Shown one piece after another: positions 15,000 to 32,908 of a stretch of DNA of 64,000 nt (position 1 is the stretch's first letter; each line of letters opens with the position of its first letter). The translations under genes were made by a program, and so were the position numbers. The stretch comes from Acidobacteriota bacterium (GTDB lineage: Bacteria > Acidobacteriota > CAIWXX01): the NCBI GenBank assembly GCA_016191015.1, contig JACPPM010000301.1, positions 5,472 to 69,471 on the forward strand. The letters are read 5' to 3'. Under the pieces are notes generated by a model. That model was given only the letters and a program-made list of their open reading frames with translations. It had not been told where the DNA came from and made no database searches.

Positions 15000-15280
15000 T
15001 ACTTTTCATTCTGGCAGCCGGCACGGGCGTTATAGGAATGTATGCCTGTGCGGACGGGTCTGGAGAATTGACGAACCCCTCGTTGCCACGCATCGTGAAG
15101 GCCAGGACTTTTGGCTCTCTGGCGGGAGCTGGGTCTTCAGCCGCGGGCTCGGCGTGCCCCACAGAGATTCCGAAGCGCATACAGAGCACCACAGAAGACG
15201 CGCTCCCTCAGAGAGATCATGAGAGGGGCGATTCCGGTATTCCAATCAACTTATCCCATGGGGAGAGGAGACCAGGCGAG

Positions 15281-15994: not shown

Positions 15995-16003
15995 GAGGGC
16001 GCG

Positions 16004-17491
16004 ATGAAGAAAACACTCGTTTCCCTGGTTCTCCTTCTCATCGCGGTTTCCCCAGCTCTGGCCCAGAACAGCGCCGACTGGCACGGGTGCTGGTGCGGCG
16101 GCTATTCGACCTCGCCCAAGACAGTGTACTGCTACGAGGGCTCCGGGTTCTCCGGCGGCTGCACGTCGCAGATCAACTACTGGAACACCCACGCGGGGGT
16201 GTTCAGCCTGGGAGCCAACCTGAGCGCGATCGGTGCCCCGGGCAACGGCAAGAGTGAAGTCAACTGCCCGATCACGACATCGCAGGCAAGCAGCGTATAC
16301 GGATACTCGATGCAGTCGTCTCTGTACGGTGTCGCCTTGATGGAGCCTTCCTCAGCCTTCGGGAACTTCAACGAGTGCGAGTCGATCGGTTCACCGAACG
16401 GCCAGCCCTCCGGCCAAGGATGCACCACCTGGACGCAGGCTGACGTGCTCATCAACGCCAGCTTCTCGTCGGGCTGGACTACCTCGTACACCGCCTATGA
16501 CGGCAAGGCCGTCGTCGCCACGACCGTGCTCCACGAAGTGGGTCACACCCTCGGCTTCCATCACGTCTTCCAGCACTTCTCGACAATGAACTACATGGAA
16601 GACGACAGCGGATGGTTCGTGACGCGGATCGACGCCAATTCCGTGCGCGACCATTATCCGACGGTCGCCAAGAGCGTGACCGACGCGGCCGTGTATCCGT
16701 TCAAGTACGGGTCGAGCCAGTACGCCGAGACCTACGCCACCTTTTCGCCGACCTCCGTCGCGGCGGGCGGCACCGTGTCGGTATCGAACCTGCGAGTGGA
16801 GAACGTCGGCAACGCGTCGAGCCTTTCGAACGTTGTGGTGACCTTCTACCTCTCCACCGACAGCAGCATCACCACCTCGGACACGGCGATCGGGACCATG
16901 AGCTGGTCCTCGTTCTCGACCTGGTGGGAGTCATCCTCGGCCATCAATCTGACGGTTCCGACTGGCACAACGGCGGGCACGTACTACATCGGTGGAATCG
17001 TGACCGTGAACGGGTCACAGGATTCCGTAAGCCTCAACAATTCCTTCGTGGTCCGCACCCGTAGCGGCTCGTCGGGAACCCCCCGCGCGCTCACGGTTTC
17101 CACGGGCGGCGGCGGCGGCGGCGGCACGACGATGAACGAAACCGAGTCGAATAACTCGCGGACATACGCCAACGTCGTTTCGACCTCCGGCACACAGGTC
17201 ACCGGCTATATCAGCAGCTCGAGCGACGTCGACTACTTCAAGGTGACGATTCCGGGGAAGAAAACGCTCTCGGTGGCTGTCACGGTCCCGGCGACGACCT
17301 CGATCGACTACGACGTCCGCCTCTACAACAGCAGCGGCTCTTACCTGACGGGCTCGGAGCAGGATGCCGGCATCAACGAGGCCTTCACCTACTACAACTC
17401 ATCCAGCTCCTCACGGGTGTACTACATCAAGGTCTATCGCTACACGGGGTACTCGACGACCCTGCCCTATGTGATGACCGTGAGCTGGTAG
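16004..17491 (+). CDS. Secreted zinc metalloprotease (metzincin, HExxHxxGxxH) with a C-terminal PPC/pre-peptidase-like domain
   Basis: Signal peptide; HEVGHTLGFHH motif; Ser/Thr-rich linker; a poly-Gly stretch encoded by (GGC)7; C-terminal beta-domain. Confidence 0.85.
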   Translation: MKKTLVSLVLLLIAVSPALAQNSADWHGCWCGGYSTSPKTVYCYEGSGFSGGCTSQINYWNTHAGVFSLGANLSAIGAPGNGKSEVNCPITTSQASSVYGYSMQSSLYGVALMEPSSAFGNFNECESIGSPNGQPSGQGCTTWTQADVLINASFSSGWTTSYTAYDGKAVVATTVLHEVGHTLGFHHVFQHFSTMNYMEDDSGWFVTRIDANSVRDHYPTVAKSVTDAAVYPFKYGSSQYAETYATFSPTSVAAGGTVSVSNLRVENVGNASSLSNVVVTFYLSTDSSITTSDTAIGTMSWSSFSTWWESSSAINLTVPTGTTAGTYYIGGIVTVNGSQDSVSLNNSFVVRTRSGSSGTPRALTVSTGGGGGGGTTMNETESNNSRTYANVVSTSGTQVTGYISSSSDVDYFKVTIPGKKTLSVAVTVPATTSIDYDVRLYNSSGSYLTGSEQDAGINEAFTYYNSSSSSRVYYIKVYRYTGYSTTLPYVMTVSW

Positions 17492-17511
17492 CTCAGAGTC
17501 TCGCACCGACG

Positions 17512-17546
17512 AGGGGAGCCTGGTTCCCGCCAAGCTCCCCTTTTTC
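17512..17546 (+). terminator. Rho-independent terminator downstream of the metalloprotease
   Basis: gaggggagcctggttcccgccaagctcccc followed by ttttt. Confidence 0.6.
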
Positions 17547-17658
17547 GTCTTCGGACGGACGCGCCGCAGCGATCGTACCCCCAGACATGCATGGACACGG
17601 GCAATGATGCCGGGTACTATCTTCTCGAAGCCGGCGATTTGGGCAAGGGAGCGATCTG

Positions 17659-20600
17659 GTGCTACTGCGCGCTGCGAAAGTCTTCTGTCTCCTCTTCTTG
17701 GTCTTCATCGGCACGCCCTGCTGGGGGCTCGATCCGTCGAAGGCCTTGACACAGTACCGGCATGATGTCTGGCAGACCCGCGACGGGCTGCCCCAGAGCA
17801 GCGTCGAGTCGATGGTGCAGACCCGGACCGGGTATCTGTGGCTCGGCACGCAGGAGGGGCTCGCTCGTTTCGATGGCGTTCGATTCGCGGTGTATGACAA
17901 GAGCAACACCAAGGCCATTCGGCACAATCGCATCCTCGCTCTCCTCGAGGACCGCCGAGGGTCACTCTGGATTGGAACGGAAGGCGGAGGCCTTGTCGAG
18001 CTCAGCGACGGGCTTTTCCGCAACTTCTCCAAGAGTGAGGGGTTGCCCGACGAGCGCGTATTAGCGCTGGCGGAGGATCATGATGGCAGGCTCTGGGTGG
18101 GCACCGGCAGCGGGCTTGCGTGCTACCGGGACGGTACGGTCGACGCGGGAAGGAGCGTGCCGGAGCTCATCGGCACGCCCATCGAGTCGCTGGCGGTCGC
18201 CGCAAATGGGAAGCTCTGGATCGGCACGGCAGGACGTGGGCTCTTTCGTTACGATCATGCGCAGGTCGAGCGGGTGGGGCCCGATGGAGAGGCTCAGAGC
18301 ACGGTCGCCAAGGTCTTCTGCGACGCGGACGGGAGCGTCTGGTTCGCCTCGAATGCGCGTCTCTATCGCCTCCAAGAGGGACCGAGCGCGCGGGTTGATG
18401 AGCAGTCGTGGGCCCGCTGGGGGAGCATCGGCGAAATCTACCGGGACCGCCAAGGCTCTCTCTGGGTTGGAACCGACGCCGGCGTTGTGAGGTTTCGGGA
18501 TGGTCGTGTGGAGTCCTACTCGGTCAAGGACGGTCTCTCCAACGACGTCATCCACTGCATTCTCGAAGACCACGAAGGCAGCCTCTGGATCGGTACGATG
18601 GACGGCGGCTTGAACAGATTCGCAGACGGTGCCTTCACGACGTACTCGACGGCTGAAGGGCTCTCCCACGACATCGTCAGTCCGATCTATCAGGATCGGG
18701 AAGGGCGCATCTGGATCGGGACGCGCGGAGGCGGCGTCAACTGCTATGCACGCGAGGGATTCACGACCTACACAGCGAGGGACGGGCTGGCCGACGACTT
18801 CGTCCAAGCCATCGTCCAGGATCGCGAGGGGACACTGTGGTTCGGCACGAAACGCGGCGGCCTTTGCAGCCTCCGCGAAGGCAGGTTCAAAACCTACACC
18901 GATCGCGACGGTCTTCCGATCGCATCCGTGCGCGCGCTCTTCGAGGATCGGCGCGGCGATCTTTGGGTTGGGACTCTGAACCACGGCCTCGCCCGATTTC
19001 GGGACGGCGGATTCCAGTTGTTCACGACGAAGGACGGCCTGACCAACAACACCGTCTTTTTCATCCTCGAAGACCATGAGGGTACCGTCTGGTTCGCCAC
19101 CAACGGCGGCGGTCTCAACTACTACCGCGACGGCCGATTCGGCGCGATCACGACGAAAGAGGGTCTCTCGATCGACATCGTCAACACACTCCATGAAGAC
19201 GCCGCCGGCACACTGTGGATCGGAACATATGGCGGCGGGCTCAACCGGCTGACGCACGGGCGCCTGTCCTCCTACACGACCCGCGAGGGTCTTTTCGATG
19301 ATGCCGTCTTCCGAATCCTCGAGGACGGCAGCGGCAATCTCTGGATCTCGTGCAACAAAGGAATCTACCGCATCGCGAAGCATCAGTTCGATGAGCTGGA
19401 TCGGGGCGGGAGGCGTTTGCTCGAACCCGCCGCGTTTGGCGTCGTTGACGGGATGAAAAACCGTGAATGCAACGGTGCCGATCAGCCGACCGGCTGGAAG
19501 ATGCGCGACGGGACGCTCTGGTTCCCGACCATCCAAGGTGCCGTGATGGTCGACCCCGCGCATCTGCCCACGAACACGCTTCCCCCGGCGGTTGTCATCG
19601 AGGAGCTGCGCGTGGACGACCGCGTTGCCGGCATCGCCGCAACCCCGGAAATCCCTCCCGGGGCTCAGAGGGTCGACATCCAGTACGCGGGGCTGAGCTT
19701 CCGGGTGCCGGCGAGGGTTCGTTTCCGCTACAAACTCGAAGGGTTCGACGGCGACTGGGTCGATGCGGGCGCACGGCGGACTGCCTACTACACGCGCCTG
19801 CCACCGGGCTCATACCGGTTTCGCGTTCAGGCCTGCAACGATAGTGGTGTCTGGAACACGGTCGGTGCCACGCTCGGCCTCGTGATCATTCCCCACATCT
19901 ATCAGAGGCCGTTATTCTACTTCGCGCTCATGGCGGTCGCTGCCATCCTCGTGATTTCTATCCATCGCCTACGGGTACAGCGGCTGAAGAGACGCGAACG
20001 AGAGCTCGTCGAGATCGTTGAACAGCGAACGCAGAGTCTGCGGCTGGAGATGGAGAGGACCGCCCGGGCGCTCCGCGAGGCGGAGGAGCAGCGGGAAATC
20101 GCACATGCGGCCAAGACCGAGGCCGAAGCGGCCAACCGGATCAAGAGCTGGTTTGTGGCGAACACGAGCCATGAGCTGCGCACGCCGATCAACTCGGTCC
20201 TCGGCTATAGCGAGATGCTGATAGAGGAGGCCGAGGAGAGCGGGAATCTCGTCGCCATCCCTGACCTGAGAAAGATCCACGCCGCCGGGCGACATCTTCT
20301 CGGGTTGATCAACGACATCCTGGACCTTTCGAAGATCGAGGCCGGCAAGCTGGACCTGCAACTCGACACTTTTGACCTGGGCGCGTTGGTCGAAGAGGTC
20401 GCTGCGAGTGTGCGGCCGCTCATCGAGAAAAACGGCAACGCGCTTGCCGCCGATGGAACTGATGTGGCCGGATCGATCTGCGCCGACCCCGCTCGCGCCC
20501 GCCAGATCCTGTTGAACCTCTTGAGCAACGCGGCGAAGTTCACGCGTGACGGGGAGGTGCGTCTCGAGGTGAGGCGCGAGACGGATCGCGTGTTGATGCG

Positions 20601-20871
20601 TGTCATCGATACGGGCATTGGAATGACGTCCGATCAAATCGCGCGGCTCTTCCAGGCGTACACTCAAGCTGGCGCAGATACGAGCCGCAAGTACGGCGGC
20701 ACCGGCCTCGGGCTCGTCATCAGCAGGCGTCTCGCCCAAATGATGGGCGGCGAGATCTCGGTGGAAAGCGCGCCGGGCAAAGGCTCCACGTTCACCCTGA
20801 CGCTCCCGGCGCGAACACCGGCGGGCGAAAAGGAGGATCGCGGTGGCTCGAGGATGGCCGCTGCACAGTAG
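17659..20871 (+). CDS. Hybrid sensor histidine kinase with periplasmic two-component-regulator propeller repeats and a Y_Y_Y domain, one TM segment, HisKA and HATPase_c
   Basis: About 14 Reg_prop repeats (GxLWIGTxxGGL); a TM helix near aa 750; H-box [10 protein letters not shown]; a G-box ATPase domain. Confidence 0.85.
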
Positions 20872-21065
20872 TCCACACTAGTCCGGAGGCGCACCGCCGC
20901 GCACGCAGGTCCCATCCTCACTACCACCAAGTCACCATGGCACCAAGAAACTACCAAGGGGTTTCTCTCCCTCATTCGTGCCCCTTGATGTCTTCGTGGT
21001 CCGGACGTCAGCTCCGGCATCCAGACGGTTGAGATGACCTGGGCCAGGAATGAGCGAGAAGGCAC

Positions 21066-22328
21066 CTATTGGCCGGGCCTGAGCACCTGGCGTATCGCGT
21101 CCAGCCGGGTCGTCCCTTCAGAGTGAGTGGGCACGATCCAACCCCCTTCCGAGAGCTCGTTCCACGCATACATGATGATCGTGCTGGCCTCAGCGGATGC
21201 AGGATTGCCCCTGATCCACTGTACGCCTTCGCCCAGGTGCGTCGCTATCTGCTCGGCGGTCGCGTACTCCACAACAGGGCCTGAGGTATACCCGCCATAT
21301 CCCCAGACATCATCCCGATGCGGTCTCGGATCCCAGCCGGCGCTCACGGTAGGGATCGCTTTGAGTCCCGCATCTCGAAAGCTATTCCACAGTGCGCTGT
21401 CTGCCTGCGCCAAGGCATCATAGGGGAACCAAGTATAGTTGTCCGGGTCCTCGTAGCCCCCGGGAATCGGGCTCGTATAGGACGTCACCGCATTCACACC
21501 GAGCTCCGCGACAGCCCGTTCCCCCTCATCGGCTGACCAGACCAACGCGGCGATGTACGGGTTCTTCATCCCGGCGCGTCGCGCCTTCTTGCGAAAATCG
21601 TCCAACATCTGCCGCAGCTTCCGCCAACTGCCCAAGATCTTTTCCGGATCTTCTCCCGCCAGCCAGAAGAACACGAGTGGCCTGCGTCTCATGACCCTCT
21701 GGTAGGACGGTTCCTGCATCTGGCCTATTGCCTCCTGCACTTCGAAGTCCCAGTTGTGCTGGCCGAAGTAGTAGTCACCGGACCCCGGCATCCCCATCAT
21801 CAGCGAAAACTTCACCTTGGACTTGAGCTGGCTGGAGAGGTAGTACTTCCGACTGCGGTTCATGTCCTCTGCCTTCCACCCGTTTGTGGGGTCGACCAGC
21901 GGATTGCCTTGTGGGTCCCGAAGGACGTACATGTTGAAGATCCAGAAATCGATGCCACCCGCGGCCGCATACGCGATCTCCTGATCCATGACCTCCTGAG
22001 AATCGGAGAAGGCCTCGAGCTGTCCGTCCGCGAGCGTCCTGGCATAGAAGGGATGGCGGTAGCGCCACTCATCGGGTGCCAGGACTGAAACGTACGGAGA
22101 GCCGCGGTACCAACCGTCCCAGCGGATCGCCCCCACAAGAGCGTTTCCCTTCTTCACCGGTACACCTGCGTGGCGGGGGGCGGCGGTCTCGAGATGTGGA
22201 CAGCGGTCACCCGACCCGCTGCGATCCCGGGCCACGCTAGCCGATGCATGCCCGCTCGCGAAGACGGGCTCGATGGGCGGCGCGAAGGCGATCGCGATTG
22301 AGAGCGAGAGTGGGGCGCAGGGTTTCAT
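21066..22328 (-). CDS. Secreted glycoside-hydrolase-like protein (family not assignable by eye)
   Basis: Signal peptide MKPCAPLSLSIAIAFA with a GGAGG SD. Trp/Tyr-rich TIM-barrel-like composition. Start trimmed from 22937 to 22328. A paralogous C-terminal remnant lies at 27230-27484. Confidence 0.65.
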   Translation of the reverse strand: MKPCAPLSLSIAIAFAPPIEPVFASGHASASVARDRSGSGDRCPHLETAAPRHAGVPVKKGNALVGAIRWDGWYRGSPYVSVLAPDEWRYRHPFYARTLADGQLEAFSDSQEVMDQEIAYAAAGGIDFWIFNMYVLRDPQGNPLVDPTNGWKAEDMNRSRKYYLSSQLKSKVKFSLMMGMPGSGDYYFGQHNWDFEVQEAIGQMQEPSYQRVMRRRPLVFFWLAGEDPEKILGSWRKLRQMLDDFRKKARRAGMKNPYIAALVWSADEGERAVAELGVNAVTSYTSPIPGGYEDPDNYTWFPYDALAQADSALWNSFRDAGLKAIPTVSAGWDPRPHRDDVWGYGGYTSGPVVEYATAEQIATHLGEGVQWIRGNPASAEASTIIMYAWNELSEGGWIVPTHSEGTTRLDAIRQVLRPGQ

Positions 22329-22617
22329 CCTATCCTCCTTGGTGGTACGTCGTACTGAGTCATATCTGCCATTCCCGAATACAGAGGGTGCACAACCCAT
22401 GCCAGCGGCCGAATCGACCCCATCTGCATGCCAACTCTCGCGGTTCCGGCGATGCGACGGGAGTCCGAATTCGAATTTCAGAGAGTCGAGATCGAAAGCC
22501 GTATGGTGTCGCAGAATTTCCTCACTCGCGCTGGCGTCTCTACCATCCGGCACGTTCATGCCCGCTTTGCCAGCATGAGCCCGCTTTGCTAGTATTGCGC
22601 CCTTCGGTGGAGGGAGG

Positions 22618-23490
22618 ATGGAGGAGTCGCGGGCGATCGGAGCAGCGCGTGAGGTGCCGCGTGCAATTGATGTTGCCAACTTCGTGCGCCTGGAACACAC
22701 GCTTTTCTCTCTGCCCCTGTTGTTTGCGGGGGCGCTGCTGGCTGAACAGGCCTGGCCATCGGTGCGGACTTCACTCCTGATCGTCGCCGCAGGGACCGGC
22801 GCTCGCACCGCCGCCCTCGCCCTGAACCGCATCATCGACCGCCGGATCGACGCGGCCAATCCGCGGACTCGCGTGCGCGAGCTGCCGGCCGGGAAACTGA
22901 AGATCGGGCAGGCGTGGGGCGTCTGCGTCGCGGGCATCGCTCTCTACCTCGCCTCCGCGGGCTTGCTCGGGCGCCTGACCCTCCTCCTCTCCCCAATCCC
23001 CCTCATCGTCTTCACCTGCTACCCGTATCTGAAGCGATTCACGACCCTCGCTCACTTCGGCGTCGGTCTCGGCCTGGCCCTGGCTCCTCTCGGCGCCTGG
23101 GTTGCAGTGACGCAGCGGATCCTGCCAGACCTGCCTATCGGGTTGCTCACGCTGTTTACACTCCTGTGGGTCGCAGGATTTGACATCATCTATGCCACGC
23201 TCGACATCGAGTTCGACCGCAGCCATGGGCTTCACTCGATACCCGCGCGCATCGGATCAAAAGCCTTGTTGATCGCGGCCTTTCTGCACCTGCTCGCCCT
23301 GCTGTGCCTGCTCGCTCTCGCGATGACCTCTCTGGACGGCTTCTATCGCTACTACGCGCTGGGCGCCGTTGGTGTGCTTTTCGCCGTCGAGCACTTCTTC
23401 TCCCGTAAGGTCAACTTCGCATTCTTCCACGTCAATTCGGTATTAGGATTCTTCGTTCTCCTGTTCATTGTCGCGGGGGTGCAACGGTGA
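22618..23490 (+). CDS. UbiA-family polyprenyltransferase (MqnP-like, late futalosine pathway)
   Basis: About 8 TM helices; NRIIDRRIDAANPRT and a second Asp-rich motif; sits immediately upstream of the UbiX- and UbiD-like genes. Confidence 0.75.
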   Translation: MEESRAIGAAREVPRAIDVANFVRLEHTLFSLPLLFAGALLAEQAWPSVRTSLLIVAAGTGARTAALALNRIIDRRIDAANPRTRVRELPAGKLKIGQAWGVCVAGIALYLASAGLLGRLTLLLSPIPLIVFTCYPYLKRFTTLAHFGVGLGLALAPLGAWVAVTQRILPDLPIGLLTLFTLLWVAGFDIIYATLDIEFDRSHGLHSIPARIGSKALLIAAFLHLLALLCLLALAMTSLDGFYRYYALGAVGVLFAVEHFFSRKVNFAFFHVNSVLGFFVLLFIVAGVQR

Positions 23491-24038
23491 GGGTCCTCGT
23501 CGGTGTGACAGGGGCGTCGGGGGCACCGTATGCTCTGGAATTCCTGAAGCGCTGCCACGAGGAGAAATACGTCGTCTTCAGCCGCTGGGGGCGGGAGGTG
23601 TTCTTCGAGGAGACCGAGATCAAGCCATCCGATTTGGACCCGCTCGTTTCCAAGATCTTCAGAGACGAGGATCTGCGCGCGCCGTTTTCGTCGGGCAGCA
23701 ACTTTTTCGATGCCTACGTCATCATCCCTTGCTCGACCTCTACGTTAGGCAAGATCGCGGCCGGTTTCGGCGACACGCTGATCACGCGGTGCGCGCAGGT
23801 GGCCATGAAGGAACGGCGCAGGATGGTCCTCTGTGTTCGCGAAACCCCGATGTCCAGCCTGCAGCTCGAGAACGCGCTCGAGCTCTCCCGGAACGGAGTC
23901 ATCATCATGCCTGCCTCTCCGCCCTTCTATTCGAAGCCCAAGGACAAGGATGAGCTGATTGGCGGGTACGTCGAGCGCGTCTGTCAGGTCCTGGGGCTCC
24001 CTTCGAACTACCACTATCGCGAGGAAGAGCTCGATTGA
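23487..24038 (+). CDS. UbiX-family flavin prenyltransferase (MqnL-like)
   Basis: MRVLVGVTGASGAPYALEFL N-terminus; 4-bp overlap with both flanking genes. Confidence 0.85.
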   Translation: MRVLVGVTGASGAPYALEFLKRCHEEKYVVFSRWGREVFFEETEIKPSDLDPLVSKIFRDEDLRAPFSSGSNFFDAYVIIPCSTSTLGKIAAGFGDTLITRCAQVAMKERRRMVLCVRETPMSSLQLENALELSRNGVIIMPASPPFYSKPKDKDELIGGYVERVCQVLGLPSNYHYREEELD

Positions 24039-25804
24039 GCACGCAGCCCCCTTACGAAAGCTTGAGAGAATTCGTCGCGACGCTCAAGCGGGAGGGTGAG
24101 CTCGTCGAAGTCAGCACTCCCGTCGATCCGGCTCTCGAGGCCGGTGAGATTTCGATGCGGGTGGTCAGAGAGGGCGGACCGGCACTGCTTTTCAGGAACC
24201 CTTCCGGAGCGGCGTGTCCACTGCTCACGAACCTGTTCGGAACGAGTCGGAGGATCGAGCTGGCGCTCGGTGAGGCACCGGCGGCATTGGGCGCCAGGCT
24301 CCTCGAGTTCCTCGAGGCTCTGCAGCCGCCGACGATCAAGGCGCTGATCGCGCGCCGCAAGCTCGGGATGCGCCTCCTAGCCGCGAGAACCCGGGTCGCC
24401 TCCGAGAATCAGGACTTCGTCTACGAAGACCCCGATCTCGCACGACTCCCGATCCTCACGTGCTGGCCCGAAGATGGCGGCCGCTTCGTTACGTTCCCGC
24501 TCGTTCTGACACATCATCCCCACACGGGCCGGCGCAATCTCGGCATCTACCGGATGCACGTCTTCGACCGCGCCACCACCGGTATGCACTGGCAGATCGA
24601 GAAGGGGGGCGGATTTCACTACGCGGCAGCGGAGCGTGATGGGCGGAGCCTGCCCGTGGCGGTTGTCATCGGGGCCGATCCCGCGGTCATGCTCTCCGGC
24701 GTCTTTCCTCTGCCTGAAAACGTCGACGAGCTCGCTTTCGCCGCCTTCCTCAGAGGCAAGCCGCTCAGGCTGGCGAAATCACCATCCTTCCCGCATCCGT
24801 ATCCGCTCGAGGCCGAGCTCGTGCTCGAGGGCGAGGTGGCTCCGCGAGAGCGCCGGATGGAGGGGCCGTTCGGTGACCATTTCGGGCACTACTCGGGCGC
24901 GGCTGAATTCCCGGTCTTCCGCGTGAATCGTGTGCGGAGGCGCAGGGATGCAGTCTTCGTTGCGACGATCGTCGGGAAGCCGCCGCAGGAGGACAAATAC
25001 CTGGGGATGGCAGTGAACGAAATGATGGCCCCGCTTGTGCGGCTTGTTCACCCTGAGGTCAGCGATCTGTGGGCGTATCCGGGCGCTGGCTTCCACAATC
25101 TGGCCGCGGTGGCGGTGGGCGAGCGGTACCACAAGGAAGCCATCAAGACGGCGCTGGGGTTGATGGGGCAGGGACAGATGAGTCTGACCAAGTGCATGGT
25201 GCTGGTCGGGGAGGGCGTGAATGTCAGATCCTTTCCCGCGCTGCTCAGGGAGATGCGGCACTATTTCGATCCCGCGCGGGATTTCATTCTTCTCAAGACG
25301 ACGCCATACGACACGCTGGACTTCTCCAGCTTCGAGATGAACCTGGGAAGCAAGATGATTGTCGACGCGACGCCGGGACCGAAGGTTTCGGTGAACGGCG
25401 CGGGGCCGGCCGCGTTTCCGGGGGCGATCGAAGAGCGGTTCATTGAAGACATGCTATTCGTTGTGAAAGTGCGCGACAGGGATGCGGCAGTGGCAGCCCT
25501 GCCGGGCTACCTCAAAAGTGGTCGCGGAACTGCTAGAATCGTTGCCTTGGTTGGAACGGACACGGATCTGGCTGATGAGGAAAACCTGCTCTGGGGCATC
25601 TTCACCAGGTTCGAGCCGGCCAGGGACGTGTACTTCGAGGAGATCGAGATGAGAGGGGTAGCGCCGGTTTACCGAGGCGGGATGGGAATTGACGCGACCT
25701 GGAAGCCAGGCTATCCGAAGCCGTTGTCGATGGACGAGGAGATCGTCCGGAAGGTGGACCGGAGATGGAACGAATACGCAATCGAGTCACGGACCCGGCG
25801 CTGA
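24035..25804 (+). CDS. UbiD-family prFMN-dependent decarboxylase (MqnM-like)
   Basis: Full-length UbiD-like protein, about 590 aa. Confidence 0.85.
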   Translation: MSTQPPYESLREFVATLKREGELVEVSTPVDPALEAGEISMRVVREGGPALLFRNPSGAACPLLTNLFGTSRRIELALGEAPAALGARLLEFLEALQPPTIKALIARRKLGMRLLAARTRVASENQDFVYEDPDLARLPILTCWPEDGGRFVTFPLVLTHHPHTGRRNLGIYRMHVFDRATTGMHWQIEKGGGFHYAAAERDGRSLPVAVVIGADPAVMLSGVFPLPENVDELAFAAFLRGKPLRLAKSPSFPHPYPLEAELVLEGEVAPRERRMEGPFGDHFGHYSGAAEFPVFRVNRVRRRRDAVFVATIVGKPPQEDKYLGMAVNEMMAPLVRLVHPEVSDLWAYPGAGFHNLAAVAVGERYHKEAIKTALGLMGQGQMSLTKCMVLVGEGVNVRSFPALLREMRHYFDPARDFILLKTTPYDTLDFSSFEMNLGSKMIVDATPGPKVSVNGAGPAAFPGAIEERFIEDMLFVVKVRDRDAAVAALPGYLKSGRGTARIVALVGTDTDLADEENLLWGIFTRFEPARDVYFEEIEMRGVAPVYRGGMGIDATWKPGYPKPLSMDEEIVRKVDRRWNEYAIESRTRR

Positions 25805-26865
25805 AAGGGATCCTGCAAAAGTTGCAGGATGGGCGGCGACTGGACTTCGAAGACGGCATGGCTCTGTTCGCGACGCCGGACTTTCTGGGCCTGGGCGCGA
25901 TGGCGAACGATGTCAAGGAGCAGAAGACTGGGGAGGATGCGTACTTCGTCGTCAATCGCCAGATCAACCCGTCGAATATTTGCGTCCTGAGCTGCAAGTT
26001 CTGCGAGTTCGCGGCGAAGAAGGGCGACTCGAAGGCATACGAGATGAGCCTCGACGAGATCCTCGCGCGGTGCGGCGACGATGTCGCCGAAGTCCATATC
26101 GTCGGCGGGCTGCACCCGGACTGGCCTTTCGACGTGTATCTCGACATCGTCCGCACGATCAGGAAGAATTTTCCGAGGATTCAGATCAAGGCGTACACTG
26201 CTGTCGAAGTGGATTTCTTCTCCCGAATCGCAAAGTTGTCGGTGGAGAAGGTGCTGGAGAGGCTCCGGGAGGCCGGCATGGACACGATGCCGGGCGGAGG
26301 TGCCGAGGTGTTTTCCGAACGCGTGAAGAAGGATCTGTTTCCGCAGAAGATCGGCGCCGAGCCATGGCTGCGGATCCACCGCCTCGCGCACAGGATGGGC
26401 ATCCGGAGCAACGCGACGCTCCTCTATGGTCATATCGAGACCCGCGAAGAACGGGTCCGCCATATGCTCCTCCTGAGAGATCTCCAGGATGAAACCCACG
26501 GCTTCCTCTCATTCATACCGCTCTCCTTCCAGGTTGGCACCACACAGATCGTAGACCGCCCGGCCTCCGCCATGGAGGACCTGCGGACGATCGCAGTCGC
26601 GCGACTCCTGCTCGACAACTTCGTCCACATTAAGGCCTACTGGGTCATGCTCGGCCTGGACGTCACCGCCATGGCCCTCAACTTCGGCGCCGACGATCTG
26701 GACGGCACAATCGGCAAGGAAACGATCGCGCACATGGCCGGGGCCGATTCGCCGGCGGGCCTCACACGCAACTTCCTCGTCGGCATGATCCGCGAAGCGG
26801 GTCGTGTGCCCGTTGTCCGGGATGGGCTCTATAACAAACTTGAAGTTATCGGTTCCGTTGCGTGA
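25765..26865 (+). CDS. Radical-SAM menaquinone biosynthesis enzyme, MqnC/MqnE family (paralog 1)
   Basis: CVLSCKFCEF is a CxxxCxxC cluster. Collinear with the second paralog at 30749-31849. Confidence 0.85.
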   Translation: MERIRNRVTDPALKGILQKLQDGRRLDFEDGMALFATPDFLGLGAMANDVKEQKTGEDAYFVVNRQINPSNICVLSCKFCEFAAKKGDSKAYEMSLDEILARCGDDVAEVHIVGGLHPDWPFDVYLDIVRTIRKNFPRIQIKAYTAVEVDFFSRIAKLSVEKVLERLREAGMDTMPGGGAEVFSERVKKDLFPQKIGAEPWLRIHRLAHRMGIRSNATLLYGHIETREERVRHMLLLRDLQDETHGFLSFIPLSFQVGTTQIVDRPASAMEDLRTIAVARLLLDNFVHIKAYWVMLGLDVTAMALNFGADDLDGTIGKETIAHMAGADSPAGLTRNFLVGMIREAGRVPVVRDGLYNKLEVIGSVA

Positions 26866-26872
26866 TCCTTTT

Positions 26873-26901
26873 CAACGCAAAGGCGCAAAGACGCAAAGAA
26901 G
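26873..26901. repeat. Single-arm CGCAAAG(N) octamer repeat array, 7 bp after the radical-SAM gene stop
   Basis: caacgcaaaggcgcaaagacgcaaagaag; no inverted partner found nearby. Confidence 0.6.
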
Positions 26902-27229
26902 AAAAGCGGATTCCTGCGAGATGGCGGGCGGCAGAGGCCGTGTTCGTCGTCCGCTTGTGGGGGCGTGACGTTTTTTGCACCGTGCGGCCGACCGGCTTGC
27001 TTCCCGATTGAGAGTCGCAGCTCACCGCAGAGCGGTGGGAGTCGACGGGGCGATCGACGCGACGCTCAACGGGACCGAGGCAGACAGGGACATACCGGCA
27101 CGGTTACTCCGTCCAGCATGGCAAAGTCACCGCGCGGCCGCGCCGCGATCGACGCCGACGACACGACCGACACCTTCGCCGAGGGACGCGCCGCCGGCCA
27201 TCAGCTCCAGGCGCTCGTGGCATGTCCGA

Positions 27230-27484
27230 GACACCACAGACTGGGGCTACATGATCCAGAACGCGGGAAACCGGCTGCGATACATAGCCGAGCGTCACAA
27301 GATCGATTCGCGTTGTCGTGAGACAGTACACACGAATTCGAACTACACCTCAATCATTTGGGTGTACGCTTACAACGAATGGGGAGAGGGTGCAGGGATC
27401 GAACAGCTTACGCAGGGAACGCCCAAATTCCCTTACCGTTTCGGCCTCGATATGCTTGATACCCTCAAGAACACACGGCCATGA
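27230..27484 (+). pseudogene. C-terminal remnant of a paralog of the 21066-22328 secreted hydrolase
   Basis: ...TSIIWVYAYNEWGEGAGIE... aligns with STIIMYAWNELSEGGWI near the C-terminus of the full-length gene. No N-terminal catalytic part is present. Confidence 0.4.
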
Positions 27485-28104
27485 GACCACGAGCACTTGG
27501 CCGGTCGGGATCGTACGTTGTGTTGGCGATGACCCTCTGGCTGGCTGGGTGTGAGGACTCACCAACGACTCCGGATCCGCTGCCGACTGGCCTGCCCAAT
27601 GCGAAGATCTTCGACAACCTGCAGCTTGCTCGTCAGTTGGAAGCAAAGCAAAGGACGGACACTATATTCACCGAGATGAGCGGCGACTTCGACTTGGACG
27701 GAACGTGCAGCGAAGGCGGCGGGATCACGTACGAGTTCACTCGCGTTCAGACGTTGGAGAGGTTCGATTGGGCTGTCTACTGCGATGGCCAGATCGAATT
27801 GTATGGACCACTATCACCTGTCGGTTCGATTACTATCATTGACGTCGGTTCGATGATGAAGATCAATAGCGATGAGGCCATCCGGCTGGCAAGGAAGTAC
27901 GGTGGCGAGGCATTCGTAAAGCTCTATCCCGATGCGATCGCTGTCCTTCGCTACTCGATCATGAATGACTACCCGGTCTGCAAGGTCCAGTTCTTCAAGA
28001 TCGGCGTGCGGTGCGAGCCAGAATACTGGCTGCACGCCGGTACCGGGGAGCTCCTACAGAAAGCCGAGGATTGCATCTCGGCCGAGATGGACCAACGCCC
28101 CTGA
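27481..28104 (+). CDS. Hypothetical lipoprotein
   Basis: Lipobox LAGC after an N-terminal signal; lower GC than surroundings. Confidence 0.6.
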   Translation: MRPRALGRSGSYVVLAMTLWLAGCEDSPTTPDPLPTGLPNAKIFDNLQLARQLEAKQRTDTIFTEMSGDFDLDGTCSEGGGITYEFTRVQTLERFDWAVYCDGQIELYGPLSPVGSITIIDVGSMMKINSDEAIRLARKYGGEAFVKLYPDAIAVLRYSIMNDYPVCKVQFFKIGVRCEPEYWLHAGTGELLQKAEDCISAEMDQRP

Positions 28105-28237
28105 TCAGGATGGAGGCGCCGGGGTTCCGCGATAGCACGGAGCCCCGGTGCTCCTGCCCTGTCGGCTCGCCGCTGACGCACGGGGCAGCGCGCCGCAGAG
28201 GACCTTACGCCCGATCACGAGAGAACCCGCGACCGTA

Positions 28238-29512
28238 ATGAGACGGCATTTGATGGATGCGCTAGGCCGAGTAGCCAGTCAGTGGGAGCTCCTTGGGAGT
28301 CAAGATCCCCTGTGGGCAGTTTTGACACACTCGGGGAAGCAAGGTGGTCGTTGGTCGTTGGAGGAGCTCATGGCGACCGGTGTGGAAGAGGTGGACAACA
28401 TCCTTCGAGAGACGGCAGAACTGCGAATCGCCGTGCCGCCCCGGAGAGCCTTGGACTTCGGATGTGGCGTCGGGCGTCTCACACAGGCGCTTTGCCGTCA
28501 CTTCGATCATTGCGACGGGGTCGATGTCGCCACATCCATGATCGCGGCCGCAAGGCGGATCGACGCGTATCCGGACCGCTGCTCCTATCACCTGAACAGG
28601 TCTCCAGACCTGCGGCTCTTCTCTGAGGGAAGCTTCTCTTTCATCTACTCGTCCCTGGTGCTCCAACACATGCATCCCGATCTCGCCTGCCGCTACATAC
28701 GCGAGCTCATCCGGGTTCTCGCCGGCGACGGCGTACTCGTCTTCCAGATCCCGACCGCGGGTCATTCATCGGCCTCGGACGCTCAGACAAGCTCATGCTA
28801 CCCGCACCCGTTACCGGAGTCCGCGCTTCGAGCGACGATAGCAGTATCGATGGCAGCATCGCGCGCATCGGCCGGAGAGCAGGTCTTGATCACCGCAACC
28901 GTGGAGAATTCTGGGACCTGCACATGGCCCTCATCACCATCCTGTAACGCCCGATACCGCATACAGATGGCGAACCGTTGGCTGACCCCACAGGGATGTG
29001 TCTACCAACAGGACGACGGGAGATGCCCTTTGCCGCGGGACCTTGCTCCTAGTGATCGAATCGAGCTGACTCTGCTCGCCACCGCGCCTGGCGCCCAAAT
29101 CTTGGAACTGGACATGGTGCCGGAGGATGTGTGCTGGTTTCAGGCAGTCGGCTCCACGCCTGCTCGTCTGTGGTTCGATGTCCTGACGCCTGGGTCCGTG
29201 AGTACCCCGATCATCCACCCGACACACACGCCGCCTGTGCCCCGTCCGATAATGCGGCGGCCGTTTCGGTACCGCTGGCCACGTACGACGGATCTTCTCG
29301 AAAGGCTGCGGCTATGGGGCTGCCTCCGGTCAGTCAGGGGCTGGTTTCGTAGGGATGTCCGAGCCGGCGTGTCAGTTTCGATGGACATGTGCGAGGTCCC
29401 AAGGTGTACGTCCGAAAACCTGATCAGAGATTGCCATGCCGAACTGCGGGCAGCGCGGACGGAAATCTGGGATGCTGGCATCCACAGCACCCGTTACTGG
29501 GTGACGAAATAA
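28238..29512 (+). CDS. Class I SAM-dependent methyltransferase with a long Cys/Trp-rich C-terminal extension
   Basis: Motif I LDFGCGVGRL and post-I DVATSM. Start chosen at MRRHLMDAL. Confidence 0.65.
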   Translation: MRRHLMDALGRVASQWELLGSQDPLWAVLTHSGKQGGRWSLEELMATGVEEVDNILRETAELRIAVPPRRALDFGCGVGRLTQALCRHFDHCDGVDVATSMIAAARRIDAYPDRCSYHLNRSPDLRLFSEGSFSFIYSSLVLQHMHPDLACRYIRELIRVLAGDGVLVFQIPTAGHSSASDAQTSSCYPHPLPESALRATIAVSMAASRASAGEQVLITATVENSGTCTWPSSPSCNARYRIQMANRWLTPQGCVYQQDDGRCPLPRDLAPSDRIELTLLATAPGAQILELDMVPEDVCWFQAVGSTPARLWFDVLTPGSVSTPIIHPTHTPPVPRPIMRRPFRYRWPRTTDLLERLRLWGCLRSVRGWFRRDVRAGVSVSMDMCEVPRCTSENLIRDCHAELRAARTEIWDAGIHSTRYWVTK

Positions 29513-29554
29513 TCCTGAGTAGGATCACAACCATCGACGGCAGGAACCACTCTG

Positions 29555-29659
29555 ATGGAACGAATACGGGATCGAATCGCAGACCCGGCGCTGATGGCGA
29601 TCTTGGGGAAGCTGCAGGATGAGCAGCGACTGGACTTCGTGAAGAAGAGTGCGCGGTGA
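29555..29659 (+). pseudogene. 5' remnant (34 codons, then stop) duplicated from the radical-SAM MqnC/E gene at 25765
   Basis: MERIRDRIADPALMAILGKLQDEQRLDF versus MERIRNRVTDPALKGILQKLQDGRRLDF; about 80% nucleotide identity over about 85 bp. Confidence 0.65.
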
Positions 29660-30012
29660 TGAAGATGCCGAACCACTGTGGCAGATTATTTCGGAGTGCG
29701 GGAGCGCAGCTCCCGCTTTCTCGGGACCGAGTACCTGTGTGAACCCGAAAGCGGCAGCTTCGCTGCCGCACTCCAAAGGCCGTCCCGCCGGTCGGCTGCG
29801 AGCAGCGGGCGCAGCGGAGATGGGGCTTTCTTGGCACGAGGCCGCGTTGGGGGCGGCTGCTGTACCCATCATTCCAGCATTCCACTATTCCTCTCGCTCC
29901 GTCCACAGGTTCGCCGCGAGCCATTGATTCTCAATTGGCTATAGAGTTTCCGAGACGAGATCGCCTTTGCGCGCCCGGCGCCTTTGCGCTAGAGTTCCGC
30001 TGGGTTGTGACA

Positions 30013-30774
30013 ATGACTGACGCGCGCATATTGCGGATCGGGCGAATGCCTTACCTCAATGTCGCACCCTTCTACTTCGATCTCGAAGCCCTCCGGCCTT
30101 ACGAGATCATCATGGGCAGTCCGCTGGAACTGGGCGAGATGGCCCGCCGCGACGAGATTGACATGGGTCCGCTATCTCTGCTCGACACTCTCTCGCTTCC
30201 GGAGATGGAGCCGATCGACGACCTCGCTGTGGCGTGTGAGGGGCCGGTGGGCAGCGTTCTGCTGTTCAGCGATCGTCCTTTCGCTGATCTTGGAGCCGCG
30301 AGAATAACGGCGACGACGGAGAGCGTGACGTCCATTCGTCTCCTGGAGGTTCTCCTGCGGCGCGCAGGCATCAACGGTTTCCACCTTCAAAGGAGTGGCG
30401 AGGCCGCGGACGCCCTCCTGCTCATCGGCGATTCCGCGCTGGCCGAGGTGCGGCGCGGGGTCTGGAGTTTCGTTACTGACCTGTGCGAAGAGTGGACGCG
30501 GCTCGAGCATCTCCCGTTCGTTTTCGCTCGGTGGGTCGTTCGGATCGGGACGCCCCGCATCGATCTCATCGCGCGGACATTACAAGAATCTCTCGACAAA
30601 GGACTCTCCGACCTGCCGGCCGTCCTGAAGGCCTTCCCGTCGCCCGTCAGCAGCGATGAAGCGCGTGCCTACCTGAACGGGTTCCTGTACAGGCCGGGCA
30701 GTCGAGGGGATCAGGCCATTGCGCGATTCCAAACTCTCCTGGGGGAATATGGAAATCAGCGGGCTCCTCGATAA
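30013..30774 (+). CDS. mqnA: Chorismate dehydratase MqnA (futalosine pathway)
   Basis: ILRIGRMPYLNVAPFYF N-terminus and periplasmic-binding-protein-like MqnA/MqnD fold. ORF-track start at 29935 is probably over-extended. Confidence 0.75.
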   Translation: MTDARILRIGRMPYLNVAPFYFDLEALRPYEIIMGSPLELGEMARRDEIDMGPLSLLDTLSLPEMEPIDDLAVACEGPVGSVLLFSDRPFADLGAARITATTESVTSIRLLEVLLRRAGINGFHLQRSGEAADALLLIGDSALAEVRRGVWSFVTDLCEEWTRLEHLPFVFARWVVRIGTPRIDLIARTLQESLDKGLSDLPAVLKAFPSPVSSDEARAYLNGFLYRPGSRGDQAIARFQTLLGEYGNQRAPR

Positions 30775-31849
30775 AGCGGCGTCGGGAGAACGACTGACGG
30801 CTGGGGAAGCGTTGCAAACGTTCCGTTCAGCACCCCTCCTGGATCTCGCCCACGCCGCGCACGGCATCCGCAACCGGAGGGCACCCCAGGGTCAGGTGAC
30901 ATTCGTCATCGACACAAACCCCAACTACACCAACATCTGCGACACTGACTGCACGTTTTGTGCGTTCTACCGGAAGCCGGGCGACAACGAGGAAGGGTAC
31001 ACACTCACGGTCGACCAGATAGCAGCCAAGATCCAACCTGCCGTGGATGCGGGAGCATCGACGCTTCTCATGCAGGGAGGTCACAATCCGGCTCTTCCGC
31101 TCTCGTACTATATCGACCTGATCCGAGGTCTCCGCGAGCGTTTCCCGCGGCTCCATCTGCACCTGTTTTCGGCGCCCGAGGTCAGGGCCATCGCGAAGTT
31201 CTGCGCTCTCACTGTGAGGGAGGTGCTCGCCGCGTTCTGGGACGCGGGGCAGCGGACCCTGCCTGGGGGAGGAGCCGAGATCCTGACGCAACGCGTCCGC
31301 CGGAAGATCAGCCCGAAGAAGGGCGCGCCCGAGGAATGGCTCGACGTGATGCGGATCGCGCACCAGATCGGATACCGGTCGACGGCGACGATGATGTTCG
31401 GCCACGTCGAAGCCGACGAGGACATCATCGAGCATCTGGATGCCCTCCGGCGGCTGCAGGATGAGACGGGTGGTTTCATGAGCTTCATTCCCTGGAGCTT
31501 CAAGAAAGGCGACACACCTCTGTCGAGGATCGTTAAGACCGAGGTGGCGCCGGCGCGCTATCTGAGGATCCTTGCCGTCGCGAGGCTCTTTCTGGACAAC
31601 TTCGCGCACATACAGTCATCCTGGTTTTCCGAAGGGCGCAAGGCCGGGCAGCTCGGGTTGTGGTTTGGCGCGGATGATTTCGGAGGAACGATTCTCGAAG
31701 AAAATGTGCTCCGATCCGCGAAGTTCGTGAATACTACTTCTGTAGAGGAAGTGAAGATGCTGATCCGGGAAGCCGGCTTCACGCCGGCTCGGCGCAACTC
31801 ATTTTTCGAGGTCCAGGAAACGTTGAGTGTCCAAGAAGTTGGGTATTGA
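30749..31849 (+). CDS. Radical-SAM menaquinone biosynthesis enzyme, MqnC/MqnE family (paralog 2)
   Basis: CDTDCTFCAF cluster; start at MEISGLL; 26-bp overlap with mqnA. Confidence 0.85.
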   Translation: MEISGLLDKAASGERLTAGEALQTFRSAPLLDLAHAAHGIRNRRAPQGQVTFVIDTNPNYTNICDTDCTFCAFYRKPGDNEEGYTLTVDQIAAKIQPAVDAGASTLLMQGGHNPALPLSYYIDLIRGLRERFPRLHLHLFSAPEVRAIAKFCALTVREVLAAFWDAGQRTLPGGGAEILTQRVRRKISPKKGAPEEWLDVMRIAHQIGYRSTATMMFGHVEADEDIIEHLDALRRLQDETGGFMSFIPWSFKKGDTPLSRIVKTEVAPARYLRILAVARLFLDNFAHIQSSWFSEGRKAGQLGLWFGADDFGGTILEENVLRSAKFVNTTSVEEVKMLIREAGFTPARRNSFFEVQETLSVQEVGY

Positions 31850-32086
31850 CATGAAATGGCAAGAACCTCGCCGGGGCGAGATCTTCCGGACTCCTCTCAG
31901 GAAAGCAGGAAGTGAGGAAGGCAGGAAAGGACCCGTCATATCGGACGCTCAGGGTGGCACGGACCGCTCTCACGCTCTCACGCTCCAGGCGCGCGAAGCG
32001 CGCCGGACGCTCTCACGCGCGGCCGGTGTTACGACGGCGGTGGTGGCCGGGGCGAGGCGCTGACAGTGAACGAATCGAAGGTGGTG

Positions 32087-32908
32087 ATGCAGGCCGGATG
32101 CAGTCCCGATCCTGACGATGTTTTTATGTTCTACGGATTCGAGAAGGGCCTTGTCGAAACGCCTTTCAGGATCGAGCCGCGATACGAGGATATCCAGACG
32201 CTGAACCGCAAGGCACTTGACGGTGTGTACGAGATCTCAGCCATATCAGCCTACATGTATCCGTTTGTCTGCCACCGCTACGCCTTGCTCGCCGCCGGGG
32301 CCAGCGTCGGGAGGGGCTACGGACCGGTTATCGTGGCGAACCGCCGCTATGATGCCGACGATTTGAGGAAGCTGAGCGTGGCGATCCCGGGCAGGTTCAC
32401 AACATCGTATCTGCTCTGCCGCATGTATCTGCCGGCCTTCAAAGAGATCGAGATGCCATTCGAGGATGTCGTGCCGGCGCTGATGGACCGGGACGTGGAT
32501 TGCGCCCTTCTCATCCACGAAGCTCAGATCACCTACAGAGAGCTCGGTTTCTACAAAGTAGTCTCTCTCTACGACCTCTGGCATGGTTCCACGGGTCTCC
32601 CGCTGCCACTCGGACTCGAGGCGGTCCGATTGGCGGAGGCCGATCGCTGGGGCCGCGCGATCAACGATGCTCTCGTCCTCAGCATCGAGCTGGCGAAGCG
32701 GGACTTCGAACCCGCCATGGAGCATGCGATCTCTCATCGGCAGACCGGTCTCGCTCCCGCCCAGGGGCGGAGGTACCTGGAGATGTACGTGAACGACGAC
32801 ACCTTGGGGATGCCGGCGGACGTTCGCAAGGCCCTTGAAATGATGTACACGACGGCACACGAGCTGGGGCTGATTCCGGAAGTGCCTCCGCTCAGGATCG
32901 TGGAATGA
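32087..32908 (+). CDS. mqnD: 1,4-dihydroxy-6-naphthoate synthase MqnD
   Basis: MQAGCSPDPDDVFMFYGF matches the MqnD SPCPNDTF N-terminal signature. Confidence 0.75.
   Translation: MQAGCSPDPDDVFMFYGFEKGLVETPFRIEPRYEDIQTLNRKALDGVYEISAISAYMYPFVCHRYALLAAGASVGRGYGPVIVANRRYDADDLRKLSVAIPGRFTTSYLLCRMYLPAFKEIEMPFEDVVPALMDRDVDCALLIHEAQITYRELGFYKVVSLYDLWHGSTGLPLPLGLEAVRLAEADRWGRAINDALVLSIELAKRDFEPAMEHAISHRQTGLAPAQGRRYLEMYVNDDTLGMPADVRKALEMMYTTAHELGLIPEVPPLRIVE

Follow-up and report, generated by a model that had tools for sequence, protein, structure and literature searches.

The present study analyzes a 64-kb stretch of DNA (the window) from a metagenome-assembled Acidobacteriota genome (locus tags HYX75_), in which two genes of the futalosine-pathway cluster for menaquinone (vitamin K2) synthesis, mqnE and mqnA, stand 3147 nucleotides (nt) apart. 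Comparison with relatives confirmed that the gap holds an accessory islet, variable between strains, within a conserved operon, and that recombination has left pseudogene scars in it. This is a known kind of event, a matter of ordinary genome evolution that involves no new type of system. In the reading that we prefer, with a probability of roughly 0.55, these 3.1 kb are the relocated, truncated remains of a WbsX-lipoprotein-methyltransferase cassette that was moved by excision as a circle and illegitimate re-entry. Sister strains (contigs L082, L083, L086 and L089) have the cassette upstream of mqnE instead, after the ubiD-like gene, where direct repeats of ~100 nt that correspond to the mqnE start (about -14 to +86) bracket it. 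The parts of the islet, together with the functional mqnE start that is repeated in it, are as follows (window positions; ORF, open reading frame; GC, guanine plus cytosine content; REP, repetitive extragenic palindromic; SAM, S-adenosylmethionine; aa, amino acids).

25764-25849, + strand: repeat copy 1 (w1), the functional mqnE 5' end; direct repeat D1, 86 nt
26866-26982, + strand: conserved mqnE 3' flank, 91.5% identical to L082 3951-4067, immediately 3' of the L082 mqnE
26867-26901: half of a REP-like element with tandem RCGCAAAG octamers, matching window 4425-4459 on the reverse strand at 91% identity
26948-26975: terminator-like hairpin with a T-run, in the mqnE 3' flank
26983-27214: filler j' (232 nt), between the mqnE flank and the WbsX fragment; GC 0.70 versus 61% for the window
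27215-27484, + strand: 3' remnant of a WbsX-family (PF14307) gene, a pseudogene fragment with the last 89 of 324 codons, found by tblastn with the L083 protein
27481-28104, + strand: lipoprotein gene, 207 aa, lipobox LAG|C
28148-29512, + strand: class I SAM-dependent methyltransferase gene with a conserved C-terminal extension (Pfam Methyltransf_25/11/23/12)
29513-29553: filler k (41 nt), between the methyltransferase stop and the mqnE 5' copy
29554-29639, + strand: repeat copy 2 (w2), a free-standing, decaying mqnE 5' copy, core of the 34-codon ORF 29555-29659
29640-29958: filler y (319 nt), holding an inverted repeat with 31-nt arms at 29690-29777
29959-30012, + strand: native mqnA leader, 84% identical to L089 from position 148, directly 5' of the L089 mqnA
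29962-29989: two inverted GCGCAAAGGCG octamer motifs (motif matches), in the mqnA leader

Relatives without the cassette

A scan for MqnE with one genome per species returned 80 loci, none more than 63% identical. The mqnA gene directly follows mqnE in 57 of these 80 genomes, with at most 360 nt between the matches, and the remnant, the lipoprotein and the methyltransferase are unmatched in all 80. L084 is the nearest relative without the island (MqnE 80% identical); its genes form the compact row ubiA-ubiX-ubiD-mqnE-mqnA-mqnC-mqnD-pyruvate kinase, in which mqnE overlaps mqnA by 4 nt. Alignment of L084 DNA covers window 22675-26836 and 30021-31818 and leaves 26836-30021 without a counterpart; the whole mqnE-mqnA gap is therefore additional DNA in the window. 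The ancestral order is the compact one, ubiA-ubiX-ubiD-mqnE-mqnA-mqnC-mqnD with overlapping genes. An earlier note on this DNA had proposed a past insertion or duplication inside the mqn cluster; the adjacency of mqnE and mqnA in L084 and in 57 of 80 genomes supports such an event, but an insertion newly made at this position does not hold, as the cassette is found upstream of mqnE in sister strains. The note had also allowed that the remnants might be chance similarities, or that relatives might share this gene order; both remnants align to full-length genes, and no relative has this order with intact, non-duplicated sequences.

Layout in sister strains

Searches with the methyltransferase, MqnE and MqnA recovered sister strains whose mqnE genes are 97% identical among themselves and 90% identical to that of the window. 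The left repeat of their cassette is a decayed mqnE start of ~86 nt that still supplies the ubiD C-terminus (L083 451-536), and the right repeat is the functional one (L082 2837-2934). In L083 the 3' end of ubiD and 85 nt of the mqnE start make up 536 nt at 86% identity to window 25313-25848; this copy is dead in the mqnE frame (GTG GGG TGA) and is followed by the hypothetical genes orf153, orf388 and orf236, the intact WbsX gene (324 aa), the lipoprotein gene, the methyltransferase gene and a kinase-like ORF. The order in L082 is lipoprotein, methyltransferase, a DUF433/DUF5615 pair, ~70 nt, complete mqnE, the 117-nt flank and PDDEXK_3, and L086 repeats the junction of the ~70 nt with mqnE. 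The first 20 nt of L089 are those of the L082 end, after which come a REP-like hairpin and mqnA-mqnC-mqnD-pyruvate kinase, the last 51 nt before mqnA being homologous to window 29959-30012. On contig L085, in contrast, ubiD runs directly into mqnE with an overlap and without an island between them, and both layouts thus coexist among near-identical strains (L085 versus L082 and L086, mqnE 97% identical).

The DUF433/DUF5615 pair of L082 (2319-2889, 5' of mqnE) is toxin-antitoxin-like, and PDDEXK_3 (4081-4488, 3' of mqnE) is a small nuclease-family gene; such genes are typically selfish or accessory, and the window has neither. A search for cassette genes elsewhere in the window was negative for L083 orf153, orf388, orf236 and the kinase-like ORF and for the L082 DUF433, DUF5615 and PDDEXK_3 ORFs. 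In L085 (1657-1704) and L086 (1207-1254) mqnE is followed by another tandem array, of GCACGGAG-like units, with no RCGCAAAG flank, and therefore the mqnE 3' flank is polymorphic as well.

The window layout is the derived one, with the cassette moved downstream of mqnE, the 5' part of WbsX lost and one repeat copy kept, because WbsX is intact in L083 and truncated here, both ends of the mqnE-start copy in the window are broken, and the ubiD-linked copy in L083 is old (56-59/85 identical to any functional copy). As it now stands, the window has ubiD and mqnE adjacent, the cassette 3' of mqnE in a REP-like-rich spacer, and WbsX cut at codon 236. Synonymous divergence (dS) between window and sister strains is 0.42-0.59 for the cassette genes and 0.41 for mqnE, and the cassette was therefore inherited in linkage with the cluster from the common ancestor and not recently acquired. 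Two ubiD rows, which were out of frame, are left out of these comparisons. The mqnE-mqnA spacer with its REP-like hairpins was also present in that ancestor. The WbsX fragment stands apart, with 92% nucleotide identity to L083 (dS 0.14) and 83% in the adjacent genes. Identity to L083 is a mosaic, 93-100% in the WbsX fragment and parts of the lipoprotein gene and 62-80% in neighboring stretches (27215-27484 versus 27481-29512), and the lipoprotein allele of L082 differs from those of both the window and L083. The alignments suggest frequent recombination within the cassette.

The two gene remnants

The direct repeat 25764-25849/29554-29639 extends over 86 nt at 83% identity (blastn E 1.3e-19), beginning 1 nt 5' of the ATG and ending at mqnE nt +86, and the 34-codon 5' duplicate of this radical-SAM gene that had been noticed earlier is thus upheld. 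The protein of the 34-codon ORF aligns only with residues 1-28 of MqnE (20/28 identical, E 1e-11) and lacks the radical-SAM core and CofH_C domain (TIGR03700), making it a fragment and not a gene. Among functional mqnE starts the copy is closest to that of L085 (73/85 identical), with 68/85 for the mqnE-linked copy of L082/L086, below the values for the window's own mqnE or L085. Compared with the functional 5' end it has 3 codon differences that are synonymous only and 8 that change the amino acid, and its ratio of nonsynonymous to synonymous differences per site (pN/pS) is 0.58-0.68, versus 0.26-0.35 between functional copies over the same codons, which is consistent with relaxed constraint. 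The longest identical runs between the two window copies are 15 nt at the 5' end (29554-29568) and 14 nt at the 3' end. The L083 copy and the window copy both end at mqnE nt +85/+86. Orthology of these two was considered and set aside: they exclusively share two bases (positions 25 and 44), which is within chance (~0.8 expected, a rough estimate).

The second remnant belongs to WbsX. When the intact 324-aa protein of L083 was compared with the window, only residues 236-324 matched, at 27215-27481, with 88.8% aa identity and E 7e-51, so that the C-terminal gene remnant reported before is real, with a start at 27215/27216 in place of 27230. Its stop overlaps the lipoprotein start (ATGA). The full-length L083 protein scores 37.8 bits against PF14307, for a cut-off of 25.1; the remnant alone reaches 15.8 bits (E 0.01, profile positions 309-337 of 350), and this partial match below the cut-off marks it as a fragment. 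The remnant had been taken for a paralog of the secreted hydrolase at 21066-22328. A distant likeness at family level remains (BLASTP E 0.001, 29% over 99 aa for the remnant; E 3e-5, 24% over 94 aa for the intact L083 protein), but the parent is the cassette's own WbsX-family gene, and the hydrolase and the remnant belong to the same broad family without being close paralogs. Neither the WbsX fragment nor the 34-codon ORF is functional; both are scars, and the 34-codon ORF, along with the 169-codon ORF 26975-27484, should be annotated as pseudogene fragments.

Proposed route of relocation

The ubiD-like gene and mqnE overlap by 40 nt (ORF table). Inserted DNA would have been tolerated here only after duplication of the ~100-nt junction (-14 to +86), because with overlapping genes any DNA placed between them would destroy one; the proposed duplication matches the repeat boundaries in sister strains. 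Homologous recombination between the two repeat copies could then have restored ubiD-mqnE and released a circle with one copy joined to the left end of the island at +86. The circle would have re-entered by illegitimate recombination, with its break inside WbsX and the mqnE-mqnA spacer as target, and later deletions would have removed the remaining island genes and the segment between the methyltransferase gene and the repeat copy. No dedicated recombinase would take part in this route. The block order that it predicts is that of the window, namely mqnE, flank, WbsX 3' part, lipoprotein, methyltransferase, repeat, island left end and mqnA leader, and the shared +85/+86 end of the L083 and window copies would be explained because a single repeat-to-island junction was carried on the circle.

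Several observations weigh against this route. The left end of the island is expected at 29640-29958, yet this segment has no similarity to L083 537-667, which follows the L083 copy. L082 and L086 have ~70 nt in front of mqnE that are missing before the window copy, and an extra deletion is needed. Within their last 14 nt the two window copies have three derived bases in common, which needs a conversion tract or a crossover there and might instead reflect a later intragenomic duplication. Fillers j' (232 nt), k (41 nt) and y (319 nt) are unaccounted for. No circular form and no empty site from the window lineage was observed, and the sister layout itself was stitched from short contigs of three samples (L082 with L089, L083 with L086, and L085).

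The main rival of transfer by a circle, and in our estimate a somewhat unlikely one, is a tandem duplication mqnE-cassette-mqnE with reciprocal loss, in which the window deleted most of the second copy and the sister strains most of the first, leaving 86 nt in each. After one duplication, deletions would suffice; cassette orientation and gene order are the same in both layouts, the 117-nt flank after mqnE is common to the window and L082, and the three derived bases common to the window copies are what gene conversion between two full copies would be expected to leave. This rival nevertheless demands that two independent deletions in a gene of 1.1 kb began at one and the same position (+85/+86, to within 3 nt), and separate deletions are still required for the 5' part of WbsX with the upstream island genes and for the segment from the methyltransferase to the copy; moreover the L083 copy (56-59/85) is far more diverged than the window copy (70-73/85), and no genome with two mqnE genes was found among the relatives. 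It is rather improbable that the cassette was instead acquired separately, by import of WbsX 3'-lipoprotein-methyltransferase-mqnE 86 nt from a sister strain into the mqnE-mqnA spacer of an L085-like strain through illegitimate or homology-facilitated recombination. Exchange is plausible among strains that have both layouts and 97% identical mqnE, the 92% identity of the WbsX remnant to L083 (dS 0.14, versus 83% for its neighbors) indicates recent exchange of at least that segment, and the window repeat copy is closest to an L085-type 5' end (73/85). Recent import of the whole cassette is contradicted by lipoprotein and methyltransferase genes that are as diverged as mqnE (dS 0.42-0.59 versus 0.41); a fragment ending in an mqnE-linked copy should run on into mqnE and not stop at +86, and the L082/L086 copy is less similar to the window fragment (68/85) than is the window mqnE or that of L085.

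A site-specific integrative element, with its attachment site in the mqnE 5' end, a replacement end carried along and a recombinase lying outside the contigs or lost, would account for gene-end direct repeats around the island with the target gene intact, for variable island content (DUF433/DUF5615 in L082, a kinase-like ORF in L083) and for GC at third codon positions (GC3) below that of the mqn genes. We regard it as very improbable, since no integrase or recombinase domain occurs in the window island ORFs or the recovered parts of the L082 and L083 islands, there is no tRNA gene, the repeats are ~100 nt at 69-83% identity and not a short identical core, and cassette divergence tracks host divergence. 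As for a chimeric contig or remnants that are chance similarities, the source is a metagenome-assembled genome and the similarity of the remnant to the hydrolase at 21066-22328 is weak, but such readings are effectively refuted by the intact orthologue match (E 7e-51), the blastn E value of the repeat (1.3e-19), the same cassette in two other samples, and three independent contigs from the Logan collection, of the same or a sister sample, that are 100% identical over 23154-27165, 27136-29718 and 29879-31114. All joins from the mqnE flank through filler y are inside these stretches, the join of filler y to the mqnA leader (29958/29959) is inside contig L088, which starts at 29879, and only 29719-29878 is without independent contig cover. 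The layout is thus unlikely to be an assembly artifact, because most junctions are spanned at 100% identity.

Excision as a circle thus remains the preferred reading. On a more speculative note, and with little probability in our estimate, the cassette might be a recombinase-free mobile unit that uses the ~86-nt mqnE start as a homology handle by which host recombination cuts it out and puts it back around an essential gene, the window copy then being an attP-like junction in a secondary illegitimate insertion; in a weaker variant, the methyltransferase and lipoprotein would modify the menaquinone or membrane context, whence the linkage to mqnE. The case is a natural one of an operon with overlapping, translationally coupled genes that still takes up accessory DNA. 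The duplicated ubiD/mqnE overlap becomes a substrate for further recombination, so that close relatives now have this cassette on one side of mqnE or the other, and the feature worth remembering is this duplicated overlap region marking the cassette on both sides of mqnE.

Comparison with known systems

Flexible genomic islets are strain-variable accessory cassettes that occupy fixed positions between core genes and are exchanged via homologous recombination in their flanks. The islet resembles them in that its position is empty in L084 with the flanking genes kept, its genes are found in none of the 80 genomes, its content varies among strains with 97% identical mqnE, and it combines lower GC3 than the flanking genes with mosaic identity, homogenized flanks and old junction alleles. 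The compositional deviation is modest (GC3 0.63-0.71 in island genes versus 0.72-0.79 in mqn genes; GC 0.567 in the lipoprotein gene), and neither a mobility gene nor a tRNA target is present. It is unlike such islets in lying inside a cofactor-biosynthesis operon with overlapping genes, and in having a cassette flanked by a ~100-nt gene-start duplication and placed on either side of mqnE according to strain.

Elements of the Campbell model, such as prophages, integrative and conjugative elements (ICEs) and integrative mobilizable elements (IMEs), integrate at a gene end for which they bring a substitute copy, with gene-end direct repeats as a hallmark. The sister repeats do flank the island with the target intact, the window copies flank mqnE and the cassette, and the free-standing copy beside the cargo resembles an attP-type junction. 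In contrast to these elements, however, the repeats extend over ~100 nt and have diverged to 69-83% identity (measured over ~85 nt) without a short identical core, cargo divergence equals host divergence, and relocation needs illegitimate recombination inside WbsX. No tyrosine or serine recombinase was found in the window island or the recovered L082 and L083 parts, the relatives' islands being incompletely recovered. The earlier report that transposase, integrase and tRNA genes are absent agrees with our scans: Pfam gave no recombinase or transposase domain among the island ORFs or the 13 neighboring ORFs scanned on either side, and the 64-kb window has no tRNA gene. An insertion sequence (IS) or composite transposon was rejected, there being no transposase and no inverted end motifs other than the REP-like octamers, which also occur at the uninterrupted L089 site. 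The islet also resembles duplication followed by degeneration, since truncation has deprived both the mqnE copy (86 nt) and the WbsX fragment (89 codons) of their catalytic parts and the mqnE copy is under relaxed constraint; it differs in that the WbsX fragment is a truncated single-copy cassette gene and not a duplicate of the hydrolase at 21066-22328.

The REP-like element is a hairpin of ~85 nt with tandem RCGCAAAG octamers. A full copy lies at 4375-4459 in an unrelated intergenic region of the window and partial copies at 26867-26901 and 29962-29989; among sister strains there are full copies in L089 (1-87) and a copy at L082 3951-3985. The motif has 13 matches versus 4.6 expected, a count that covers 64 kb of genome only. 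The arrays at 26875-26906 (+) and 29962-29989 (-) were tried as terminal inverted repeats of the islet and rejected: they belong to the dispersed REP-like hairpin (window 4375-4459) and are found also after the L082 mqnE and before the L089 mqnA, a cassette-free site. Palindromes of the REP type and bacterial interspersed mosaic elements (BIMEs) may be compared as landing pads, as the ~85-nt hairpins have partial copies after mqnE and before mqnA that bracket the variable spacer. Unlike in those systems, no REP-associated tyrosine transposase (RAYT) was seen and few copies are countable, which leaves the element as a candidate for a role in the rearrangement only.

Cargo genes

The lipoprotein gene had been described as lower in GC, and with 0.567 it is at the 4th percentile of 624-nt windows; its GC3 is 0.71, versus 0.72-0.79 in mqn genes. 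The protein (MBI2841162.1) is 76-83% identical to those of L082 and L083, with a ratio of nonsynonymous to synonymous divergence (dN/dS) of 0.17-0.23, has no Pfam domain and no relative in JGI metagenome contigs, and is restricted to the window lineage and sister strains.

The methyltransferase belongs to the class I SAM-dependent enzymes (PF13649 E 1.5e-13, 51.7 bits versus a cut-off of 27), and its LDFGCGxGR motif is invariant in 18 aligned sequences, the window's and 17 homologues. The C-terminal tail had been called unusual; it is instead a conserved family feature, with W260, W278, W330, W451 and many other residues invariant in the same 18 sequences and with 2346 homologous matches, many of which cover ~90% of the length at ~40% identity. 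The true start is probably ATG 28238 (M31), because the alignment with the 17 homologues supports M31. The protein in GenBank is shorter still, at 380 aa. A segment of ~30 residues that the other 16 aligned members have (alignment columns 420-457) is missing from the window and L082 proteins. Matches of at least 75% identity are confined to the window's own genome record, L082 and L083. The dN/dS against sister strains is 0.29-0.33, and both cargo genes are still under purifying selection (dN/dS 0.17-0.33).

No observation connects the cargo with menaquinone synthesis: the score for a UbiE/MenG-type menaquinone methyltransferase is low, the methyltransferase gene is missing from the compact L084 operon, its distant homologues sit in unrelated neighborhoods, and the lipoprotein is without a domain or relatives beyond these strains. 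The UbiE/MenG type was rejected as a candidate at 21 bits for TIGR01934 versus a cut-off of 158 and with no conserved mqn linkage. The methyltransferase gene in this mqn cluster is not to be annotated as an enzyme of the menaquinone pathway, and understanding of the futalosine pathway is unchanged by the islet. A guess, based only on the lipobox and on the partner gene of the WbsX family, would be an accessory role related to the cell envelope or to glycans.

Fillers between the blocks

Filler j' gives the ORF 26975-27484 (169 codons) an N-terminus rich in Pro, Arg and Ala, and has no similarity in L082-L086 or the rest of the window by blastn. Homology to L082 and L083 at the 3' side of the methyltransferase ends at 29505, and filler k has no match elsewhere. 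Filler y has no homologue in L082-L086 or elsewhere in the window, and when the sequence 5' of the L089 mqnA was compared with this stretch, the single match began at 29959. Residual homology in the fillers to mqnE or other genes was sought with blastn at word size 7 (26866-27230 and 29640-30012 versus L082-L086 and the window) and only the known flank and REP matches were returned; Pfam found no domain in the six longest reading-frame fragments of the fillers (two in j', both +; four in y, two per strand). A structured RNA was likewise rejected, as the fold of 29640-30015 is not unusual (z -0.26) and no Rfam family occurs there or within 25000-31000 as a whole. The inverted repeat in filler y (I1, 29690-29777) has arms of 31 nt that are 87% complementary, 26 nt apart, and occurs nowhere else in the window. 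Its left arm covers 29690-29720, and the independent Logan contig L001 breaks off there, at the third base from the end of the arm (29718), perhaps because of the repeat.

Cluster context

The genes on either side of the islet are as follows.

22618-23490: UbiA-type prenyltransferase
23487-24038: UbiX-type flavoprotein
24035-25804, + strand: UbiD-like decarboxylase (Pfam UbiD_N/UbiD/UbiD_C; TIGR03701 491.8 bits versus a cut-off of 495.9)
25765-26865, + strand: mqnE (aminofutalosine synthase), intact (TIGR03700 466.8 bits versus a cut-off of 434.55)
30013-30774, + strand: mqnA (PF02621)
30719-31849: mqnC, after mqnA (TIGR03699 451.6 bits)
32066-32908: mqnD-like gene (MqnA/MqnD family), after mqnC

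The gene at 25765-26865 is identified as mqnE by its TIGR03700 score above the equivalog cut-off and by its ubiA-ubiX-ubiD-mqnE context, as in relatives; the protein (MBI2841161.1) is 94% identical in amino acids to MqnE of L082 and L085, with dN/dS 0.08. The order mqnA-mqnC-mqnD is repeated in L084 and L089. Ravcheev & Thiele 2016 (PMC4746308) use mqnL for the UbiD-like and mqnM for the UbiX-like gene, and by this nomenclature the UbiD-like gene adjoining mqnE, which the earlier note had called mqnM, is mqnL. The mqn cluster of the window lineage is likely transcribed in at least two units.

A second variable segment flanks the cluster upstream. Window 14787-22674 (~7.9 kb) is missing in L084, where a GAF-SpoIIE gene directly precedes the UbiA-type gene; in the window it holds two hypothetical genes, a sensor histidine kinase ORF of 1070 aa and the WbsX-like hydrolase at 21066-22328.

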